Shown: positions 33,105 through 61,032 of the stretch, piece by piece
Position numbering within the stretch: the first letter of the stretch is position 1
Layout: each line of letters begins with the position of its first letter
Assembly: GCF_964213995.1 (NCBI RefSeq)
Contig: NC_135817.1
Location: 59,396,001 to 59,460,000, forward strand
Source of the DNA: Mustelus asterias
Lineage: Eukaryota
DNA length: 64,000 nucleotides
Reading direction: 5' to 3'
Translations under genes and position numbers: made by a program
Notes under the pieces: generated by a model
The model's input: the letters and a program-made list of their open reading frames with translations, nothing else
The model's database searches: none
What the model was told of the DNA's origin: nothing

Positions 33105-35707
33105 CGCCCAATGCATCCTGGGACCTGTTGGCTGGAAGAATAAAACCTTTGGTAGTACCGACTACAGCTCCCGGCGGCCTCTGCGGCACCAGGCGGCCCA
33201 CGGGATCGGTGGACAACTCTCGCGCGAGAGGCAGCTGACTGTCCCTCTCCCCTCACCCACAGGGTTGAGGCCACCGACTGAATGCTGCAAACAGACGGCA
33301 GTGTTAGGGAAACAGAGTTAGCCTTTGCAGTCCGTATGATTCGTGTTCATCGTCTGATGGTTGTCTTGTATCCCTGCAGTGGAATTTATTTGACGAATTA
33401 GGCCAAATTGACAGATTAGAGACAGAATATTCCGACTGTGGGAGGAAACCCACGCAGATATGGGGAGAACGTGCAAACAGTGATCTAAGGCAGGAATCGA
33501 ACCCGGGTCCCTGGTGCTTTCAGGCAGCAATGCTAACCACTGTGATAGGGATGATAAATTAGAGATTAGGACCGTTTTCCTTGAAGAGAAGGCCAAGAAG
33601 AGATTTGCTAGAGGTGTTCAAAATCATGAGAGACTAGACAGGGTAGATAGGGAGAAACTGTTCCCACTCGTAAAAAGACTGAGAGCGAGAGTGTGCACAT
33701 TTTAAAGCGATTTGCAAAAGAAGCAAAAAGGTTAAGCGCATTGGACATGCTAAATGGCCCCTTTGTATCCAAAGCTGCCTTAGTTAAGTGGATTAGCCAA
33801 GTAATGCATGGGGTTGCAGGGATAGGGTGGGCGGAAAGGCTTGGGTGGGATGCTCTTTCGGAAATTTGGTGCAGACTTGATGGGCTGAATGACCTCCTTC
33901 TGCACTGCAGGGATTCTATGGTTATTACAGACTTGTTTGGCCCATCATGTCTGCACTGGGTCTCCAATGAGCATTATGACTTTGTGCCATTCTACTGTCT
34001 TTTCCCCATACCCCTGCATATTGTTTCTATTCAGATAATCATCTAAAACCTTCTTGAAAACCTCAACTGAAGTTGCCTCCATCACACTTCTGGGCAGTGC
34101 ATTTCAGGCTTGAATCACTTGCTGTGTGTGAAAAAGTTTTTTTCTCACATCACGTTTGCTTCTTTTGCAAATCGCTTTAAATGTGCACACACTCGCTCTC
34201 AGTCTTTTTACGAGTGGGAACAGTTTCTCCCTACCTACCCTCTCTCTCATGATTTTGAACACCTCTAGCAAATCTCCTCTTGGCTTTCTCTTCAAGGAAA
34301 ACTGTCCTAATCTCTAATTTATCTTCATAACTGAAGTTTCTCATCCCTCAAACCATTCTTGTAAACCTCTTCTGCACTCGCTCCAATGTTCTCACATCCT
34401 TCTTGTAGTGTGGTACTCAGAACTGTATGCAATTCTCCCGCTAAGGTCTAACAAGTGTTTTGCATAAGTTCAGTGTAACTTCCATGGTCTTTTATTCTAT
34501 GCCCTTATTACAGTCCAGGAAAATGCATGCTTTATTAACTGCTATCTCCACCCGTCCTGCTATCTCCAATGATCTATGCACATAAACATCCAGGTCGCTC
34601 TGCTCCTGCACTCCCTTAAGAATTGTACCCCTTATTTTATATTGTCTCTCATGTTCTTCCCACCAAAATGCATCACCTCACACTTTTCCGCATTGAACTT
34701 AATCTGTCACTTATCTGCCTGCTTCCCCCAATTTATCTATGTCCTTTTGAAGTTCTACTCTGTCCTCACAATTTACAATGCTTTCAAGCTCCATGCAATC
34801 TGCAAACATTGTAATCTGTCCTCTGTACAACAAGATCTAGATCATAAAACTATATCAATAAAGTAAAAGCAAGTGTCTCAGTACTGACTTCTGAGGACCT
34901 CCACTAAAAACCTTCCCCCAGCTGAAAAATATCTATCGACTATTACTTTCTGCTTCCTATTACTCAGCCAATTTTGTATCCATGTTGCTACTGTCCTTTT
35001 TATTCCATGAGCTACAACTTTTCTCACAAGTTAGTTTTGTGGAACTGTATTGAATGCGTTTTGAAAGTCCATATATACCACATCAACAGCGTTCACCCTT
35101 TCTGTTACCTCTTCAAAAAACTCAAGCAAGTTAGTTAAATGTGATTTTCCCCTTTAGAAATCCATACTGGCTTTTCCTAATCAACCCACTTTTTTTTCCA
35201 TGCGACTACTAATTCTATCCTGAATAATTGTTTCTAGAATCTTCCCCACTACTGAAGTTAAGGTTATTGTGATGTATTTATTTGGTGGCTTGCTGTAGTC
35301 AGATGACCTCTGCCATGAGACACTGATTGGAAACAGCCATGTTACCTAAAGCCTTGAAGGCATGCTTTGAATTAGTAGTGAAAGTAACTTATGAACATCA
35401 TGTGTTTAACTTTAGGCCTCAAGGGGAAGAAGAGTTTATTGATTATTATGTGACTACAGTAGCATGGCTTGCAGATTCTGTTGAATTTAGACAACTTAAA
35501 GATGATCTAATTTAAGCTAGGCTTGTCTTGGGCAAGAGATCCTTCATTGAGAGTATATCTACTGACAGAGGAGAAACTAATTATCAAGAAAATGATTGAC
35601 GTGCAGAAGTGCTGAGGTTGTAAATCATCAGACATATCCATGGCAGAACAGACCAGGCCTTGTCTTAAGCTAATCAATATTCCAGGCCTTAACAGCAGAA
35701 AGATCAC

Positions 35708-36846
35708 AAAGGTCCCTCATGGTAGGCTGGTGCAAAAGGTTGGATCTCATGGGATAAAGGGGGAGGTGGCTAGATGGGTGGAGAACTGGCTTGGTCACAG
35801 AAGACAGAGGGTGGTAGTGGAAGGGTCTTTTTCCGGCTGGAGGCCTGTGACTAGTGGTGTTCCGCAGGGCTCTGTATTGGAACCTCTGCTGTTTGTGATT
35901 TATATAAATGATCTGGAAGGTGTAACTGGGGTGATCAGTAAGTTTGTGGACGACACAAAATTGGCAGCACTTGCAGATAGTGAGGAAAATTGTCAGAAGC
36001 TACAAAAGGATATAAACAGGCTGGAAATTTGGGCAAAGAAATGGCAGATGGAGTTCAATCCTGATAAATGCGAAGTGATGCATTTTGGTAGAAATAATGT
36101 AGGGAGGAGCTATACGATAAATGGCAGAACCATAAAGGGTGTAGATACGCAGAGGGACCTGGGTGTGCAAGTCCACAGATCCTTGAAGGTGACGTCACAG
36201 GTGGAGAAGGTGGTGAAGAAGGCATATGGCATGCTTGCCTTTATAGGATGGGGCATAGAGTATAAAAGTTGGGGTCTGATGTTGCAGATGTATAGAACGT
36301 TGGTTTGGCCACATTTGGAATACTGCGTCCAGTTCTGGTCGCCACACTACCAGAAGGACGTGGAGGCTTTGGAGAGAGTACAGAGGAGGTTTACCAGGAT
36401 GTTGCCTGGTATGGAGGGGCTTAGTTATGAGGAGAGATTGGGTAAACTGGGGTTGTTCTCCCTGGAAAGACGGAGGATGAGGGGAGACTTAATAGAGGTG
36501 TATAAAATTATGAAAGGCATAGATAGGGTGAACGGTGGGAAGCTTTTCCCCAGGTCGGTGGTGACGTTCACGAGGGGTCATAGGTTCAAGGTGAAGGGGG
36601 GGAGGTTTAACACAGATATCAGAAGGACATATTTTACACAGAGGGTGGTGGGGGCCTGGAATACGCTGCCAGGCAAGGTGGTGGAGGCGGACACACTGGG
36701 AACGTTTAAGACTTATCTAGATAGCCATATGAACGGAGTGGGAATGGAGGGATACAAAAGAATGGTCTAGTTTGGACCAGGGAGCGGCACGGGCATGGAG
36801 GGCCGAAGGGCCTGTTCCTGCGCTGTTTTGTTCTTTGTTCTTTGTT
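35708..36846 (+). mobile_element. Young 5'-truncated CR1-clade LINE (RT C-terminal part, open frame)
   Basis: ORF 35640-36770 with [14 protein letters not shown] and HLEYCVQFWSP motifs; 3' tail of tttgttc repeats. Confidence 0.93.
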
Positions 36847-42099: not shown

Positions 42100-42390
42100 A
42101 AATTTATTAGTGTCACAAGTAGGCTTACATTAATGCTGCAATTAGGTTACTGTGAAAATCCCCTACTCGCCACACTCCAGTGCCTGTTCTGGGTACACTG
42201 AGGGAGAATTTAGTATGGCCAATGCATCTAATCAGCACGTCTTTGGACTGTGGGAGGAAACCAGAACACCCGGAGAATACACACGCAGACATGGGGAGAA
42301 CATGCAGACTCCACACAGACAGTGACCCAAGCCAGGAATCGAACCTGGGTCCCTGGCGCTGTGAGGCAGCAGTGCTAACCACTGTGCCAC
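42100..42390 (-). mobile_element. HE1/V-SINE-like element
   Basis: Same family as 20968-21275. Confidence 0.85.
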
Positions 42391-45352: not shown

Positions 45353-47659
45353 AAACAGTGGGAGAAGTGATGGAAGAATTCCCAAGTTAATTGTCAGCCT
45401 GTTGAACCAGGTTATAAAGCTTTTTCCATGGTCAATAAGTCCTGCTGTTGACTTGGTCCCGGAGCTTCTGGTCTAGAGTCAGGGACACTACCACCGTGCC
45501 ACAAAACCTTTTTTCTAACGGCAATAGAAACATTAGATGACATATCTGATTGCTTATTTCAGTGTTTGTAGAAATTGTTCTTTGCTGGATCCTGTCCAGT
45601 GGTCTGCTCATTGTTGAAGTATAGTGCCTGTCCACTGACGATATTGAGCCTGTGACAAGCTGGGCTCACTCTTAAGAATTAACCGTATTACAGGAGAGGA
45701 TAGAAAGGAGATTTGTGAGGATGTTGCCAGGATTGTCCAAGATTTACATTCCCTGCACAACAAGAGCATAAATCTGTGAGGAACTGGTCTTCGTAAGTTG
45801 TTTTTTTTCAGCTGATAGCTTCCCAGGTACTGGTGCACACAAGACATTTGAAACAGGAAAATTTCCTTCAAAAAGGTTGTTAACTGCCCAGAATCACAAG
45901 AATGTTTCGGTAATGAAATATTCCCAGAAGCTAAACGAAACATTAACTGAGATCCATTATCTCTTTCTCACACTTGCATAGCCAAGCCTATATTACTTCA
46001 GTGCAAAAGTTCTTTGTAGTAAGATTCCAAACAATTTTAATAAATGTTTCCACAACCAGCACAAGGGTTGCATTCAAGAATTATTCTTGTTCATTCAGCT
46101 GAAGCTCAGGTGGTGTCATTCTTACAACAAATCGGAATAGAACTTTAAAAAGAATAACGATACAAATCGACAATGCATCACATGAGAGACACTGTCACAG
46201 AAATCTCTGTTCATAAGCAACTTAAGAACATGAGTAGGAGGGTAGACCATGCAGCACCTTGAACCTGTTCTGTAATTCAGGTGGAAGGATTCCCATGGTC
46301 ATGGCTAATCTTCAACCTTAATTCCACTTTCCTGCCCGATTCCCATCTCCCTTGATTCCCTCAGTGTTCAAAATTTAATCAATTTCAGCCAAAAACATAT
46401 TTAATGATTTGAGCATCAACAAACCCGTGTCCACCCTGGGTAATGAGGAAAGATTTACGCTCTGACTAAAGAAATTTATTTTCATCTTAGTCCTAAATGG
46501 CCAACCCTTTATCCTGACACTGGCCCATCTTAATAGACTCTTCAGCCGGGGAAACAGTCTCCCAGCTTCTCGCCGAGTGAGTCCCATCATAATTCTATCT
46601 TTTCCAATAGTATCGCCTCTTTTTTTTCTCCTCATCTCCAGAGAGTATTGGTTCATTCTACTCAACCTTGTCCCCTTGGACAGCCTCTCATCCCAGAAAT
46701 CAGTCTGGCCAACTTTGCCGCCCCGTCTCTGAGGCAAGTTTACCCTTCTTTAGATATGGAGACCAAAACTATACACCGTTGTCCAGATGGAGTATCACCA
46801 AAGCCCTGAACATTTGCAGCAATACCTACTTGCTTCAATTCTTTGCAATAGAGGTCAACATATAATTTACTTTCCTTATAGTTGCTGTGCCTATATGTTA
46901 ACGTTCTGTGATTCATGCGCAATGATGCCCAAATGCCTTTAAACACCGACATTTAATAATTTTTAGGTTTTATTTGGTTTGCTATTCTTCCTACCATGCC
47001 TCTTCACATTGTACTTCAGCAGCCACCCTCTTGTCTGCTCACTTAACCTATCTATGTCCCTTGGCAAATTTTGTGTTCTCCTCGCATCTTGTTTTCCCGC
47101 CTAGTTATCTATCATCAGAAAACTTAGATATATTACACTAAATCAATTAATTTAAGTCATTATAGATAAAATATTGTAAGTGTCTGAGGCTCCAGCACTG
47201 ATTCTTGCAATAGCCCACTAGCAACAGCCAGCCAATTTGAAAATGATTCATCTATTTCTACTGCATTTTCTGTCATCTAACCAATCCTTCCCATCCTAAT
47301 ATATTGCCCCAAACCCATGAGCCCATATGTAGTAGACTTACTTTTTGTGTCTCACCTTATTGAATGACTTTTGGAAATTCAAATATGTTAGTCATTGGCT
47401 CTCTACTTGCTAATTATATTCTCAAAGATTGTCAAATATAATTTCCCTTTCATAGTGATATATTACTCTCATTTAATTTTCTCATCATTAATCTTAGGTC
47501 ACCCTTTGTTGGTGTCCAAAATGCTTCAAATCCTCTTGCTCACCACTTTTTGTGATAATGCAAAATTCTATTGTGATCACTCTGTCCCAGCGAATTCCTT
47601 ACTATGGGTTCAAGAAGTCAACTCACCACCACATTCTCAAGGGGAATTAGTTTTATCTA

Positions 47660-47950
47660 CTTGTTTCACAAGTAAGCTTACATTAACATTGCAATGAAGT
47701 TACTATGAAAATCCCGTAGTCGCCACACTCCGGCGCCTGTTGGGGTACACTTCGGGAGAATTTAGCATGGCCAATGCACCTAACCAGCGCGTCTTTCCAA
47801 CTGTGGGAGGAAATCGGAGCACCCGGAGGAAACTCACACAGACACCGGGAGAATGTGCAACTCCGCACAGACAGCGACCCAAGTCAGGAATTGAACCCAG
47901 GTCCCTGGCGTTGTGAGGCAGCAGTGCTAACCACGGTGCCACCGTGCCAT
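47660..47950 (-). mobile_element. HE1/V-SINE-like element
   Basis: Same family as 20968-21275. Confidence 0.85.
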
Positions 47951-48945: not shown

Positions 48946-49253
48946 TCATAGAATAGAATCCCTACAGTGCAGAAGGAGGCCATTCAGCCCATCAATTCTG
49001 CACTGACTACAATCCCACACAGGCCCCACTTCCGTAACCCCACATATCCTCACTGCTAATCCCCCTGACACTAGGGTCAATTCAGCATGGCCAATCAACC
49101 TAACTCGCACATCTTTGGACTGTGGGAGGAAACCCACACAGACATGGGGAGAACGTACAAACTCCACACAGACAGTGACCCAAGGCTGGAATTGAACCTG
49201 GGTCTCTGGCGCTCTGAGGCAGCAGTGTTAATCACTGTACCACCATGCTGCCC
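48946..49253 (-). mobile_element. HE1/V-SINE-like element
   Basis: Same subfamily as 18726-19050 (atagaatc tail). Confidence 0.85.
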
Positions 49254-50592
49254 CAACCTTTTGCTTTTGGACACATCCCATTTACCTAAGGCCAGAGAAT
49301 TTTGGCATAGGTTAGCAAAGTTAGCCCTTAATGTTTCCTTAGTGCCTGTGGATATACTGCTGCATTTTTACTGATGCCCTTCCTAGTTAGATATCCTGGA
49401 CTGTTAAATTAATTGGCGCATTGACTTGGGGTTTATTGGAGCTAAGTGGGTGGACTCCCACTCTAAAATTACAGGCTTCTCTTCCATTAGTGAGCCAATG
49501 TAATTGCAGAATTGTCAACAGTTACCTGGAGCACTGTCAGATTTTATAGATATTGGTTTCAAAGATACTTGAAAGGCCTTAACTTTGATTGTGATTCATC
49601 ATTTTGGAGTAGTATCAATCCCCAAAACGACATGCTCACCCCATGACAATTGATGTGTTCTTCAACACTGACCTTTTACTTTGAGATCTTTCTTTTATAA
49701 GTCATAAGATGTGAAAAGTACACTCCTTCTGACCTTGACCTATTCGCCCTTCTGCCATTTTGTTGCACAGTATAAGTTCATCTTTTGTGGTTATCAATAA
49801 TGAGAGGTGAATTTTGTCACAAAACACTGATAAACTTAACAATGTCCCTTTTAAATAGCTAGAATAGCCTTTAGTGTGATGTTCGTTGTAGGAAAAATGC
49901 ATCATTGAAGGTGCGGTCTTTCAAATGAGATATTAAACCAAGGCCCCTTCTGCGCTCTCAGAAAATCCCATGGCACTATTTCAAAGAAGAACCGGGGAGT
50001 TACCTCAGTGTCTTTGCCAATATGTATTTCTCACATGTAAGAGGTGCACACTCCCATTTACCCTTACTATTAGTACTTGACTTTAGGATTTTATAAAGGA
50101 TAAACTTACACAGACACAGGGTCATAGGCTCAACCACAAACTTGTTTAATAACAAAAAACATTCCTAATGCCCTATTACAAGAGCTCAAAACTATTGTGA
50201 TGCTGCCACATAACACTCGAAACCATGACTTATTAATAAAAACCTCTCTAAAAAACCACAGCAAAGCCCCACATTTCTGCCCAAAACCTTACTCAGTCCA
50301 ACTCAAAACCCCTCCGGATTTAGCTGCAAGACTTAAATGATCCTGAAACCTCAGCCCTCGGATCTGGCTGAAACTTTCAACTCCTCACCAGCGAGAGCTG
50401 CAGGCCCATGACTCGGGTTGGCCATTCCTAATTCTCTGTGGTAACTGCAGTCCCAAAGCTTCAGGTCAATATCACCATGATATGGCTGAAAACACACACA
50501 ATTCCCAACATGGCTCGTCTTGTCCAGTGTTGGAAGTAGGCCTGAGTCAAGGTGACCAGCCCTGACCCTCCTAACTGCAGTGGCAGACCCTT

Positions 50593-50814
50593 TGTGGTGA
50601 ACCACTGTAATACTGTCTGTATATGGGATATGCCTGGGCACGCCCCTGCTGCCTCAATCTGGGGCTCCGCCCTCCTCGGGGTATAAAGGTGGCTGCTCTC
50701 CGCCCCTTTTGCCTCAGTTCGGGTTAGCCATCGGTTTGGGAGTGCTTCTGTTCTTGTTAATAAAAGCCTGTTGTTTCGCAACATCTAGTCTTTGCGTGAA
50801 TCAATGGTGCATCA
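50593..50814 (+). repeat. 5' LTR (222 bp)
   Basis: TGTGGTG...GCATCA with TATAAA and AATAAA; about 6 substitutions and 1 indel relative to the 3' LTR, counted by eye. Confidence 0.95.
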
Positions 50815-50837
50815 ATTTTATTAACAAAATTTTTGAA

Positions 50838-53800
50838 ATGGAGCAACTCCTGAAACCTGACAAATTGGATTTGGATCCGCAGGCAGTTGGCGCCTCTGAC
50901 TCTTTTGATCACTGGCTGCGCTGTTTTGAGACCCTCCTCCTCCATCGTCGTAACAGACATCGACAAACTACATGTGCTCCACGTCCGCGTCAGCGCTCAC
51001 GTCTTCGCGCTGATCCGAGACGCAGAGACTTACCAGGAGGAAATCGATCTCCTCAAGAGCCAGTACAACCGGCAGCCGAACAAGATCTACTCCAGTCACC
51101 TATTGGCCACTCGCAGACAGCAGCCCGGGGAATCGACTGAGCAATTCCTGCGTGCACTCGGCAGAGCCTGCAACTGCAAGGCCATTTCAGCCACCCAGAA
51201 CGCCGACGACCTGATCAGAGATGCCTTTGTCGCGGGCATCAGGTCGACCTATATCTGGCAGCGTCTACTGGAACAAGGTGGGCTGGACCTGAAGAAAACT
51301 GTGGAACTTGCCGGCTCACTGGAGGTAGCATTCCGGAACCTCGAGGCCTACAGCCCCGACCACGAGGGCGCACCGTGGACACCGCGACCGCAGCCATCGC
51401 TGTACCCGGGAGGGCCGCAAACCTACGCCACGCCCCGTCCCGAAGCCGAACTGACCACTGCGGCAATCCCTGGAGGCCCCAGGTGCTACTTCTGCGGCCT
51501 GGAGAAGCACCCACGACGACACTGCCCGGCGAAAGATGCGATCTGCTCTGGCTGCGGTAAGAAGGGTCATTACCTGAATGTTTGCAGGACAAAATCGGCT
51601 CCCAGGCCCAGCAGCACCGCATGCGATCCGCAGGAGGGACTGCCTTCGACGCCATCGACCGGGTGCGATCCGCGGGTGCTGCCATCTTGGACACCATCAG
51701 CCACGTGTGACCCACGGGAGCCGCCATCTTGGGTGACGCCAGCCGAGTCATGGGGGCAGCCATTTTGGGAACCGTCCACCGCATCGCCTAATCCGACAGT
51801 GGCCTCGGTTGCGTTGGACCAGTCCAGGCCTTACCAGCTCGCCTGGTTGATGATGGACATCAAGGTAAACGGCCACACTACTAACTACTTATTTGACAGT
51901 GGGAGTACGGTGAGTTTCATCCACCCTAACACGGTGAGGCGCTTAGCACTGCCAATGCAGCAATTAATCTCTATGGCTTCGACGTCCCAGTCAGTGAATG
52001 TCCTCTGACTGTACAGGGCACGGTGTACGACAAGTGCAAGCTCCTCGTGCTGCCACAGCTCTGTGCTGCCGTACTACTGGGGCTAGATTTCATGTGCCAC
52101 CTTGGGAGCGTCACTATGGTGTATAATGGGCCTTTCCCCCCAATCTCCGTCCAAATTCCACAGCTAACAGACCAGCCACCATGCACCACCTGTGGTCTCT
52201 CGACCCTCAAAGTCGCCCCTCCCTCGCTCTTTGAACACCTCACCCCCAACTGCAAGCCCATTGTCATGAAAAGCAGACGGTACAGCGCTGGAGATAGAGC
52301 ATTCATCAAGTCCGAGGTGCGACGCCTCCTGGGGGAGGGGATCATTGAGGCCAGTACCAGTCCCTGGAGAGCCCAAGTGGTGGTTGTCAAAACTGGGGAG
52401 AAACTTCGCATGGTCATTGACTACAGTCAGACCATCAACCGATACATGCAGCTGGATGCGTATCCCCTTCTCCGCGTATCTGACATGGTCAATCAGATTG
52501 CACAATATCGGGTGTTCTCCACCATTGATTTGAAGTCTGCATACCACCAGCTCCCTATCCGCCCGGAAGACCGCCAATACACTGCCTTCGAGGCGGATGG
52601 CCGTCTCTACCACTTCCTTCGGCGTCACCAATGGGGTCTCGGTTTTCCAGCGTGAGATGGACCGAATGGTGGACCAGAACGGGTTGCGGGCCACTTTCCC
52701 GTACCTGGATAACGTCACCATCTGCGGCCACGATCAGCAGGACCACGACGCCAACCTCCAAAAATTCCTCCACACTGCGGCACTCCTCAACCTGACCTAC
52801 AATAAGGAGAAGTGTGTATTCCGCACGTGCCGCCTCGCCATTCTTGGTTGTGTTGTGGAGAACGGGGTCATCGGCCCCGACCCCGACCGCATGCATCCCC
52901 TCCTGGAACTTCCCCTCCCCACCACCCTCAAAGCGCTGAGGAGATGCCTAGGCTTCTTCTCATACTACGCCCAGTGGGTCCCCAATTATGCGGACAAAGC
53001 CTGTCCGCTCATCAAATCCACATCTTTTCCCCTAGCGGCGGAGGCCCGGCTGGCCTTTGACCGCATCAAAGTGGATATCGCGAAGGCCACGATGCACGCC
53101 GTGGACGAATCCACCCCATTCCAGGTGGAGAGCGATGCGTCTGATTTTGCCCTAGCCGCCACTCTTAACCAGGCGGGCAGACCCGTGGCCGCCTTCTCGC
53201 TCACCCTCCAGGGCCCTGAAATTCGACACTCCTCTGTCGAAAAAGAGGCACAAGCCATTGTGGAGGCTGTGCGACACTGGCACCACTACTTAGCTGGCAA
53301 ATGGTTCACCCTGCTCACGGACCAACGGTCCGTTGCCTTTATGTTCAGTAACGCACAGCGGGGCAAAATCAAGAACGATAAGATTTTGAGGTGGAGGATC
53401 GAGTTGCCACCTACAATTACGACATTTTAGACCGGCCTGGGAAGCTCAATGAGCCCCCAGACGCCCTGTCCCGGGGGACCTGTGCCAGCGTGAACCTAGA
53501 CTGGTTACAGACCCTCCACGATGACCTCTGCCACCCGGGGGTCACCAGGTTCTTCCATTTCATCAAGGCCCGGAACCTGCCCTATTCCATTGAGGAAGTC
53601 AGGTCTGTAACCAGGCACTGCCAAGTCTGTGCGGAGTGCAAGCCGCACTTCTACCGGCCGGGCAGAGCGCACCTCATCAAAGCCACCCGCCCTTTCGAAC
53701 GCCTGAGCGTTGACTTCAAAGGTCCCCTCCCCTCCTCTGACCGCAACGTATACTTCCTCAACATCGTTGATGAGTATTCGCGGTTCCCCTTTGCTATTCC

Positions 53801-54639
53801 CTGCCCGGATATGACCTCTGCCACGGTCGTCAGGGCCCTGCACAGCCTCTTCACCCTGTTTGGTTTCCCAGCTATATTCATAGCGACCGGGGTTCCTCTT
53901 TTATGAGTGACGAGCTGCGCCAGTACCTACTCTCCAAAGGCATAGCCTCGAGTAGGACCACCAGCTACAACCCCAGGGGGAACGGACAGGTGGAGAGGGA
54001 GAATGCGACAGTCTGGAAGGCCGTTTTATTAGCTCTCCGGTCTAAGGGTCTTCCAGTCTCCTGCTGGCAAGAGGTCCTCCCTGATGCGCTACACTCAATT
54101 AGGTCACTACTGTGCATGGCTGCCAACACCACCCCTCATGAACGAATGTTTGTTTTCCCCAGGAAGTCCTCCTCTGGGACCTCACTACCGTCGTGGCTGA
54201 CGTCCCCTGGTCCTGTCCTGTCCTGTCCTCCGGAAGTATGTGCGCACCCATAAGTCGGACCCCCCTGGTCGAAACGGTCTGGCTCCTCCATGCCAACCCC
54301 CAATACGCCTATGTGGCATATCACGACGGTCAGGAGGACACGGTCTCCATTCGCGATCTGGCCCCCGCAGGTACTACGTCCCATGGCCCCTCACCCCCAG
54401 CTCCCAACGTCGTCCATGATGCACCAGAGTCGCAGCACGCTCATTTAGCCCCCGTGTACGGCACGCCTGAGCCCCAGGAGCAGCCTCCACTCACCCGGCA
54501 GTCTGAAGGCGCTACGGACGGCTTCACCAGTTATGGACTGGCGTCTGACCCATCACCGCGGCCTCCTGAACCGGCACCACAGCTGACATTGCGGCAATCG
54601 CAGCGGCAGATCAAGCCCCCAGAGAGACTGAACTTGTAA
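50838..54639 (+). pseudogene. Gypsy gag-pol, broken into ~7 ORF pieces
   Basis: ATG of MEQLLKPDKLDLDP at 50838. Consecutive domain-bearing ORFs at 50887-52008, 52023-52655, 52597-53430, 53391-53906, 53903-54253 and 54193-54639 lie in shifting frames. Confidence 0.9.
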
Positions 54640-54713
54640 CTTGAATCAATAACCTGTGACTGTCGTTCCACCACCTCGCCCCCGCCGAACTCTTTTTTTA
54701 AACAGGGGGTGAA

Positions 54714-54934
54714 TGTGGTGAACCACGGTAATACTGTCTGTATATGGGATATGCCTGGGCACACCCCTGCTGCCTCAATCCGGGGTCCGTCCTCCTCGGG
54801 GTATAAAGGTGGCTGCTCTCCGCCCCTTTTCCCTCAGTTCGGGTTAGCCATCGGTTTGGGAGTGCTTCTGTTCTTGTTAATAAAAGCCTGTTGTTTCGCA
54901 ACATCTAGTCTTTGCATGAATCAATGGTGCATCA
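54714..54934 (+). repeat. 3' LTR (221 bp)
   Basis: Direct repeat of 50593-50814, preceded by the PPT and followed by the TSD. Confidence 0.95.
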
Positions 54935-56483
54935 CCCTTGGCCTTTTTAATTGCAAAGCTTTATTGAAAATACCAAAGCGTATTTCCTGAAGACATCCTG
55001 TTTGGATGGTTAGTGGTCATCACTTTTTAAATTTTTTTTATCCTAGTTCCTGCTTTGGTCCATACAAACCCATTTATTGCGATGTTGTTTCTATAATCGA
55101 AACAAGGGACTCCATTCAGGTGTGATGTCTCTGGCTCGCAAGTTGATATGTATGTGATAAAGTCCATTTCTTCTTAGCTGTTATCAATGTTTGTTTATAC
55201 AATGGTTGTTGTCTGGGTCCATCTGCTCTGATGGCCTGCCAGTTTCTTCAATTGGATTGCCTGATGGCCACTGTTTTGTGTCTTTAAGATGATAATATCC
55301 CAGTATCTTTACACAGTATCAACTTGGTATTGATATTGACATGCTCTGAAGGTGAACTCCTTCCTGCCTTTGTGGGTTGAGGTTTGGCCTGTTTTGTTTG
55401 CAGTATTTATATCCATTCAGCTTTGGGGTTTTATGTTTAATAAATGTCCAGTTGGAGGTGATTCCAATCATACACACCGGACATCTGATTCATTTTGGAA
55501 TGAAAAACACGGAGAAGCAATATAAAATAAAGGATACAATTGTAAAGGCGTTGCTGGAACAGATGAGGTATGTGTGAACAAGTCATTGAAGGTAGCAGGA
55601 CGGATTGAGAGTGTATTTAATAAAGTATATGGGATCCTGGGCTTTAGAAATAGGGGCATAGAATACAAAAAGTAAGGAAGTTATGATAAACCTGCATAAA
55701 GCACTGGTTCAGCCTCAACTGGACAATTGTGTCCTGTTCTGGGCACCACACTTTAGGAAGGATGTGAAGAAATGTGAAGGGGTGCAGAAAAGATGAGAAT
55801 TGTTCCAAGGCTGAGGAACTTCAGTTATGTGGATAAATTAGAGAAGTTGGGGCTGTTCTCCTTGGAGAAGAGAAAATTTGATAGGGGTGTTTAAAATCAT
55901 GAAGCATCTGGTCAGGATAGATAGTGAGAAACTGTTCCCATTCTGCTCTGACGAAGGGTCATCCAGACTTGAACCGTTAACTCTCTTCTCGCTCCACAGA
56001 TGTTGTCAGACCTGCTGAGTTTCTCCAGCATTTTCTATTACTGTTCCCATTAGTTGAAAGATCACGAACCAGAGGACATAGTTTAAGAGGGTTGATTGCA
56101 AAAGCAACAGAGACACAAGGAAATGTTATTTTCATGTAATGAGTGATTGGAATCTGGAAGGTACTGCTGCGTGCATGGTGGAGCCAGATTCAATCATGGC
56201 TTTCAAACATCTCCACATCATTTCAAACAAGAGTCAGAACATTATCTGAAGAGAAACTTACAGGGAAATGGGACCAGGTTGAGTAACTCTTGCAGACAGC
56301 AGATACAGACATGACCGAATAACCTCCTCCTTTGCTGTAACCATTCTATAATTCTATAACATACCAAAACCATTTATATGGTCATTTTGGTGTGCACAAA
56401 TTCCCACGCTACAAGGGTGACGATTTCAAAAATATGTGTTGGTTGTAAAACACTTTGAGAAGTCTGTTTGTGGAAGGCGCTAC

Positions 56484-60200: not shown

Positions 60201-60779
60201 GTTCGTCTTTTTGTTACTTTTTCTACCTGTCTACTAGGTTTTAATGGTTCATGGTACTTGGACCCCCAAATCTCTGATCCTCTTTAGTTTCTAGATTTTC
60301 ACCATTTTGTAAAATATTCTGGTTCATCCTCCTTGTGTCCAAAGCCAATGACTTCTCACTTTTTCACACATTGAAATCCATTTGGTATAGTTTAGACCGG
60401 TCACTTGAGATCTTTTGTAACTTGACACTCACATCTGTACTACTTGTTCTCCTGCCTAACAAGGCAAACCTGTAAACATGGATACGTAACTCTCTCCCTT
60501 CATCCACCTCATTAGTAATTTGGTGAAAAGTTGTGCCCAGAACATTTGCCTGGGGAACATCACATGTCATGACCTACTGGAGTTTGTCCCTGAATTCCCA
60601 CACTGTCCCCTCCTGAGTGAAATAAATTGGAGTTTATTTGAAATTAGAATTCGGGAGCAATAATGTCCAGTGCACAGTAACCCTGACAGCCAAGGTTGCA
60701 GTCAGGGTTAGAATTCTTGGAATGGGGTGCAGAGTGTGTATATGGATTTGTCTGGTGCCATAATGCATAAGAATCTGCT

Positions 60780-61032
60780 CAGTGCTTAGTGCTGCTGCCT
60801 CGCAGCTCCAGGGACCTGGGCTCGATTCCTAGCTTGGATCATTGTCTGTGTGGCATCTGCGTGTTCGCCCCGTTGTCTGTGTGGGTTTCCTCCCACAGTC
60901 CGAAAGACGTGCTGGTTAGGTGCATTGGCCATGCTAAATTCCCCCTCAGTGTACTCTAATAGGTGACAGTGTGGCGACTAGGGAATTTTTGCAATAACTT
61001 CAGTGAAGTGTTAATGTAAGCTGACTTGTGAC
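60780..61032 (+). mobile_element. HE1/V-SINE-like element
   Basis: Same family as 21792-22058. Confidence 0.8.

Follow-up and report, generated by a model that had tools for sequence, protein, structure and literature searches.

A Gypsy element of Mustelus asterias with a putative primer-binding site complementary to its own long terminal repeat: a candidate for self-priming

A 64-kb window of the Mustelus asterias genome (the whole stretch analysed, 64,000 nucleotides of contig NC_135817.1 in assembly GCF_964213995.1, positions 59,396,001 to 59,460,000) carries at 50593-54934 a 4342 bp long terminal repeat (LTR) retrotransposon, which is a decayed Gypsy copy of a large family (Table 1). The element shows the TG...CA LTRs, the target duplication, the polypurine tract (PPT) and the order protease, reverse transcriptase (RT), RNase H and integrase that characterise Ty3/Gypsy elements, these four domains being recovered in Gypsy order by a Pfam search, and the RT of Ty3 is its best match among solved structures (E 1e-17). 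The two LTRs differ by 6 substitutions and one indel in 222 columns. No env is present in the reading frame of the element, and no chromodomain was detected at E 0.05 in any of 11 sequences (ten homologous polyproteins and the C-terminal frame from the window); PF00385 is likewise absent from the precomputed domain lists of 120 listed homologs. The RT-RNase H piece has 465 protein matches at E 1e-30 or better. Among the 120 matches listed, the named close homologs belong to sharks and rays (71-86%) and the others to cnidarians, one nematode and metagenomes (about 57-63%), and many of these relatives are polyproteins of about 1200 amino acids that consist of a single open reading frame (ORF) with two CCHC knuckles. 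The RT active site in the window reads YLDN (52702-52713) and not YxDD, and the listed homologs carry YxDN in 103 cases and YxDD in 15, with no match in 2. A literature search by this RT motif found no paper on the Gypsy clade concerned. Two polyproteins of the clade (P0017 and P0048) are filed under bacterial metagenome bins and probably represent host DNA in those bins.

Table 1. Features of the Gypsy element and its flanks (window coordinates; RT, reverse transcriptase; LTR, long terminal repeat)
Feature	Position	Strand	Remarks
Target-site duplication CCCTT, 5'	50588-50592	+	flanks element
5' LTR, 222 bp, TG...CA	50593-50814	+	LTR pair comparison
TATA box (predicted)	50682-50687	+	T[AT]TAAA at this place in 135/151 copies
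Initiator-like TCAGTT, predicted start near 50716	50714-50719	+	after TATA
LTR arm, candidate self-primer 3' end, predicted cut after 50765	50754-50765	+	contains AATAAA 50759-50764
Second helix (predicted), 50766-50773 with 50802-50810, stacked on primer duplex	50766-50810	+	fold predictions
Poly(A) site (predicted), near	50780-50783	+	from spacing only
One-base spacer A, LTR end to site	50815-50815	+	A in 150/151 copies
Primer-binding site (putative)	50816-50827	+	complementary to LTR arm, not to tRNA 3' end
gag-protease-RT-RNase H-integrase frame, 6 frame changes	50838-54639	+	two CCHC knuckles, RT motif YLDN
Polypurine tract	54700-54713	+	directly before 3' LTR
3' LTR, same arm at 54874-54885, no downstream partner	54714-54934	+	
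Target-site duplication CCCTT, 3'	54935-54939	+	matches 5' copy

An initial annotation of this DNA had claimed that the element lacks a transfer RNA (tRNA) primer-binding site (PBS) and carries a self-complementary site instead, and both parts of the claim are borne out. No TGG follows the end of the window LTR, and one nucleotide past the LTR the putative PBS is the exact reverse complement of the 12-nt LTR arm, with a match that grows neither way. The AATAAA inside the arm and the TATAAA starting at 50682 are also found where they had been reported. The 12-mer, whose composition in the arm is 11/12 A/T, occurs three times in the window (in both LTRs and the site) against 0.04 expected by chance. 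The fold of 50745-50835 has a predicted energy of -19.5 kcal/mol (z = -4.0, with 0/200 shuffles as good), and the counterpart at the 3' LTR, which had correctly been said to lack a downstream partner, gives z = +1.1.

The same arrangement is found throughout the family in this genome. An LTR-junction search returned 1895 candidate genome matches of which 40 were scored, and all 30 junction loci fetched share the site, 23 with perfect pairing and 7 with one or two mismatches. Searches with Gag turned up several sister subfamilies and about 14,000 candidate matches. A sample of 160 elements was fetched (24 of them chosen for their variant appearance); in 151 the LTR end and the AAAA/GCC joint (the slash marks the predicted cut) served as anchors independent of the pairing, and 9 were dropped. 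TGG follows the LTR in 0/151 anchored copies, which rules out the deletion scar of a canonical PBS that the initial annotation had considered as an alternative. The spacer is one base long in every copy, and pairing is perfect over 12 nt in 86 and extends over at least 11 in 140. At the variable positions 8-12 the two arms form Watson-Crick pairs in 93% of cases compared to 61% when the sites are permuted (maximum 65% in 1000 permutations), and registers slid along the sequence reach 29-45%. Where an arm/site combination recurs in at least two insertions with arms identical in both LTRs, 11/14 are perfect. CpG decay can imitate compensation at some positions on both arms, and only transversions were counted as safe; transversions that such decay could not produce (G/T, A/T and G/C) do occur among the paired changes, and in one subfamily AATAAA has become ATTAAA with the change mirrored in its site. 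The RNAalifold consensus of 29 copies, which were picked as well-paired representatives, contains 14 pairs of which 8 are changed on both sides. The initial annotation had made its reading depend on the pairing being kept in relatives, and compensatory changes across copies and families indicate that it is. As a control, other Gypsy elements of the genome were inspected at 20 loci; the junction was resolved in 11, and every one of these shows a TGG site together with a self-match of only 5-7 nt.

Several observations on individual copies and groups may be added. Another Gypsy group in the genome (L409-L413, L417, L418 and L423-L426) has long LTRs, a T run followed by a TGG site, and frames of up to about 2000 amino acids. 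The copy L125 has an inverted LTR segment ahead of its site. In L205, which represents one insertion with L019, the arm of the 5' LTR carries a change that is compensated in the site with the 3' LTR unchanged, a single case that may be due to chance. L304 was considered as a recombinant, with its site and loop from one subfamily and its LTR arm from another; its loop marker is present in the 5' LTR only and so is later than the insertion, and the recombinant reading was rejected. Neither a PBS or primer copy retained downstream of the 3' LTR (shared starts of no more than 5 nt among 113 elements) nor an extended PPT ahead of the 5' LTR (2 nt or less among 63 elements) left a signature.

Beyond this genome, a metagenome scan yielded 79 loci, 45 of them with a Gag start; 43 of these, together with one positioned manually, entered a duplex search that allowed G-U pairs. 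A duplex of 11-19 bp is present at the site in 35/44 loci, each of its own sequence; 31 have Watson-Crick pairs at 12/12 positions and 4 more have 11 pairs from the second base past the LTR (LTR+2), with one G-U in three of these, which belong to a single family. The remaining loci comprise 3 partial cases, 5 in which fewer than 135 nt precede the Gag start, and one that gave no match. Among 23 family representatives (the window and 22 metagenome relatives) the duplex invariably starts at LTR+2, with loops of 24-87 nt. Their own matches measure 11-19 nt and comprise 21 distinct 11-mers, and 502/506 cross-family matches are shorter than 11 nt, the 4 that reach 11 belonging to two pairs of families with similar sites. 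Families sharing the position of the duplex have an RT-RNase H identity to the window of 47-61% (for L072 over a 41-amino-acid stretch only). The 23 families are not 23 independent events, since six representatives fall into one close subclade. A quick tree search, with support by the Shimodaira-Hasegawa-like approximate likelihood ratio test (SH-aLRT) only, puts 27 self-complementary rows on one side of a 99% branch, a tree which does not place the clade because it has 6 outgroup rows of two kinds and an ingroup gathered by similarity. A pattern scan of viral contigs gave 5 matches, none of which was confirmed. The arm ends in AAA in 21/23 families, mostly followed by RCC, and AATAAA or ATTAAA lies within the paired arm in 13/23 and is missing from it in 10/23, in 3 of which the hexamer is unpaired in the loop. 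The tenth base counted from the arm's 3' end (50756 in the window) is G in 21/23 families and, together with AAA/RCC, possibly marks an end recognised by a protein. L071 has a second copy of its own site within the loop.

An initiator-like motif, for which the consensus was taken from the description in PMC3601003, lies 31-34 nt past the TATA box in 132/135 TATA-bearing copies. The distance from the predicted start to the 3' end of the arm is 45-55 nt in 123 copies and 74-75 nt in 9. With a conserved TATA box and initiator and a predicted start about 50 nt upstream of its 3' end, the primer would be internal to the transcript, which supports the earlier suggestion that the element differs from Tf1 in this respect, and an internal arm would need to be cut at AAAA/GCC. 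CA dinucleotides 15-19 nt past AATAAA are likely poly(A) sites, judging from their spacing. A helix of at least 4 bp begins directly 3' of the arm in 18/23 families (mean 5.9 and maximum 12 in 1000 null sets), and in the subfamilies of this genome it is stacked on the duplex in 25/28 single folds.

The pairing between LTR and site is a real and conserved feature. It is proposed that a segment of the element's own LTR takes the part of the tRNA and primes minus-strand DNA synthesis. Transcription would start near 50716, and a leader of about 50 nt would fold back and bring its final 12 nt into pairing with the site. Cleavage after 50765, probably by the RNase H of the element by analogy with Tf1, would free a 3'-OH from which RT would copy backwards, beginning at 50815 and reaching 50766. 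If the poly(A) site lies 15-19 nt past AATAAA, the first strand jump could use some 15-18 nt of the terminal repeat of the RNA (R). The attached primer would then be copied during plus-strand synthesis and the site rewritten from the LTR, and its strict complementarity would be accounted for in this way. In LTR elements the right end of the complementary DNA (cDNA) is set at the boundary of the primer site. The duplex ends at LTR+2 whatever the length of the loop, where this end would have to be set, which favours a primer, and the fixed position, the strict Watson-Crick pairing and the AAA/RCC end taken together would suit a primer more than they would a simple hairpin. From the sequence comparisons, self-priming in some form, with the element's own RNA in place of a tRNA, appears very probable, and priming by the copy of the arm in the 5' leader is probable, although with less confidence.

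Some results weigh against this proposal or limit its reach. A mismatch is present in 3/14 of the repeated arm/site combinations. The absence of G-U pairs, which agrees with a site that is copied anew from a primer still attached, comes from a comparison of the 23 representatives (0 in 322 cells at duplex positions 1-14, 14 in 99 in the next helix) that is biased towards this outcome, these having been picked as long Watson-Crick runs, and the G-U-tolerant search did find one family (L099/100/108) with one G-U. The second helix is absent from the RNAalifold consensus of the 29 copies and changes partner between families. Most metagenome relatives have no TATA at the spacing seen here, so that support for an internal primer is confined to the subfamilies of this genome. 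Finally, the pairing data are equally compatible with priming by either copy of the arm, 5' or 3'.

The last point leads to the closest alternative, in which R at the 3' end of the transcript pairs with the site, whether end to end or across two RNAs packaged together, and the cut falls at the same joint. With the start and the poly(A) site as predicted, the arm lies within R and would occur at either end of the RNA. The co-variation results are all equally compatible with this model, and the second helix of many relatives, a short local hairpin, could arise in the 3' copy too. However, the stacked helix in this genome's subfamilies (the 25/28 folds above) uses the end of the unique 5' region (U5), which is present only at the 5' end of the RNA, and the local fold at the 5' end forms within a single molecule and closes a 50-nt loop; priming by the 3' copy is considered unlikely. 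Equally doubtful is a more far-reaching version, in which an animal-wide clade outside the chromoviruses would have acquired self-priming independently, the poly(A)-signal segment at the RNA 3' end would prime and close the transcript end to end, and one segment of 12-19 nt would act as terminator, primer and template for its own site. The sole role of the duplex might instead be that of a switch concealing the poly(A) signal of the 5' LTR, with something else acting as primer, a reading consistent with the hexamer in the arm of 13 families, with the unpartnered 3' LTR, and with the subfamily in which AATAAA and its partner changed together. As 10/23 families have no hexamer in the arm (3 of them exposing it in the loop), hiding it cannot be the general function; moreover, occlusion requires neither a fixed end at LTR+2 nor avoidance of G-U, and no other primer site is seen, which makes an exclusive switch improbable. 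Of the two options offered by the initial annotation, self-priming is thus favoured and poly(A) occlusion would be at most a second use, which the same duplex may serve in the 13 families with the hexamer in the arm, that of the window included.

A host molecule could also act as primer, with the LTR match being secondary. Primers derived from half-tRNAs are described for copia lineages (PMC6317226), and the comparison with host tRNAs, in which the best match was 5 nt, was very incomplete in covering 27 distinct genes of few isotypes, so that within this range the tRNA match which the initial annotation had named as a possible objection does not appear. On the other hand, the site follows its own LTR in each of at least 11 repeated perfect arm/site variants within one genome and in each of 21 different 11-mers found across families, and priming by a tRNA half or other small RNA is very unlikely. 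The least probable reading, a chance A/T-rich inverted repeat or functionless homogenisation at the DNA level, could draw on the 11/12 A/T arm and on L205, in which only the 5' LTR and site changed. It is largely refuted by the permutation and cross-family results, the other Gypsy elements and the 12-mer count in the window being negative controls as well, and the position is kept across families at the RT-RNase H identities given above.

The proposed self-priming by the LTR arm is reminiscent of Tf1, in which the first 11 bases are described as pairing with the PBS and RNase H as cutting after base 11 (PMC7175516), and the PBS as being copied into the cDNA's 3' terminus (PMC11042837). The closest known systems are Tf1 and Tf2 of S. 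pombe, Tj1, Tosmo1-3, Tcry1 and the Tf1/sushi group of chromoviruses, and like this group, as characterised in PMC10085805, PMC4600332 and PMC7175516, the window clade consists of Gypsy elements without a tRNA site, with a PBS complementary, along some 11 nt or more, to the element's own 5' LTR and with helices, here predicted, beside the duplex. The three-duplex 'pretzel' structure of the group may be compared with the helix that follows the arm in 18/23 families. Unlike the group it lacks a chromodomain and by architecture is therefore not Tf1/sushi (one chromodomain locus fetched for comparison gave no RT match). Further differences are that the predicted position of the arm is internal, some 38 nt into the transcript instead of at the 5' end, that it overlaps the poly(A) signal in 13/23 families, that a helix begins directly 3' of it, and that most members have YxDN in RT (103/120 listed). 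Self-priming has also been predicted from LTR-PBS complementarity for plant Tcn1 (Gypsy) and for TAR, Houba and Osr-1 (copia), according to the account in PMC6317226; these belong to other lineages and hosts than the window clade, and with TAR self-priming already has more than one predicted origin. The clade resembles Cigr-1, Tor2, Mag, CsRN1, MolGy and Saci2, compared by description only, in being non-chromoviral and compact with some single-ORF members, and the LTR start TGTGGTG recalls the CsRN1 motif TGTGGYG given in PMC3601003. Saci2 is not supported as a name for the clade, as it is described with 4-bp duplications and tRNA-assigned sites (PMC12471100) and the window element has 5-bp duplications. 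A literature search, which covered neither most subscription journals nor Repbase Reports, found no publication on self-priming in an animal Gypsy clade outside the chromoviruses. Self-primed animal Gypsy families are reportedly the subject of Repbase notes, and a prior description is possible. Occlusion of the poly(A) signal in the 5' LTR is a known system in retroviruses, from which the present case differs in that the partner is a putative primer-binding site and many relatives pair without a hexamer.

Elsewhere in the window, a separate RT-bearing ORF (PF00078) at 35640-36770 is probably an ordinary copy of a long interspersed nuclear element, and a dispersed short repeat family at 42102-42390, 47655-47942, 49073-49243 and 60777-61031 probably represents ordinary copies of a short interspersed nuclear element.

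Self-priming has so far been shown mainly in a fission-yeast element and is inferred for the chromovirus kin of Tf1 and one copia lineage. If the proposal is true, a large animal Gypsy clade, for which Gag gave about 14,000 candidate matches in the genome studied, would replicate without a tRNA, using an internal primer that is tied to the poly(A) signal and a polymerase site which is mostly YxDN. The clade predicts an exact RNA end, AAA/RCC. Such elements would escape control by tRNA supply or tRNA fragments, and annotation based on the PBS would miss or mislabel them.
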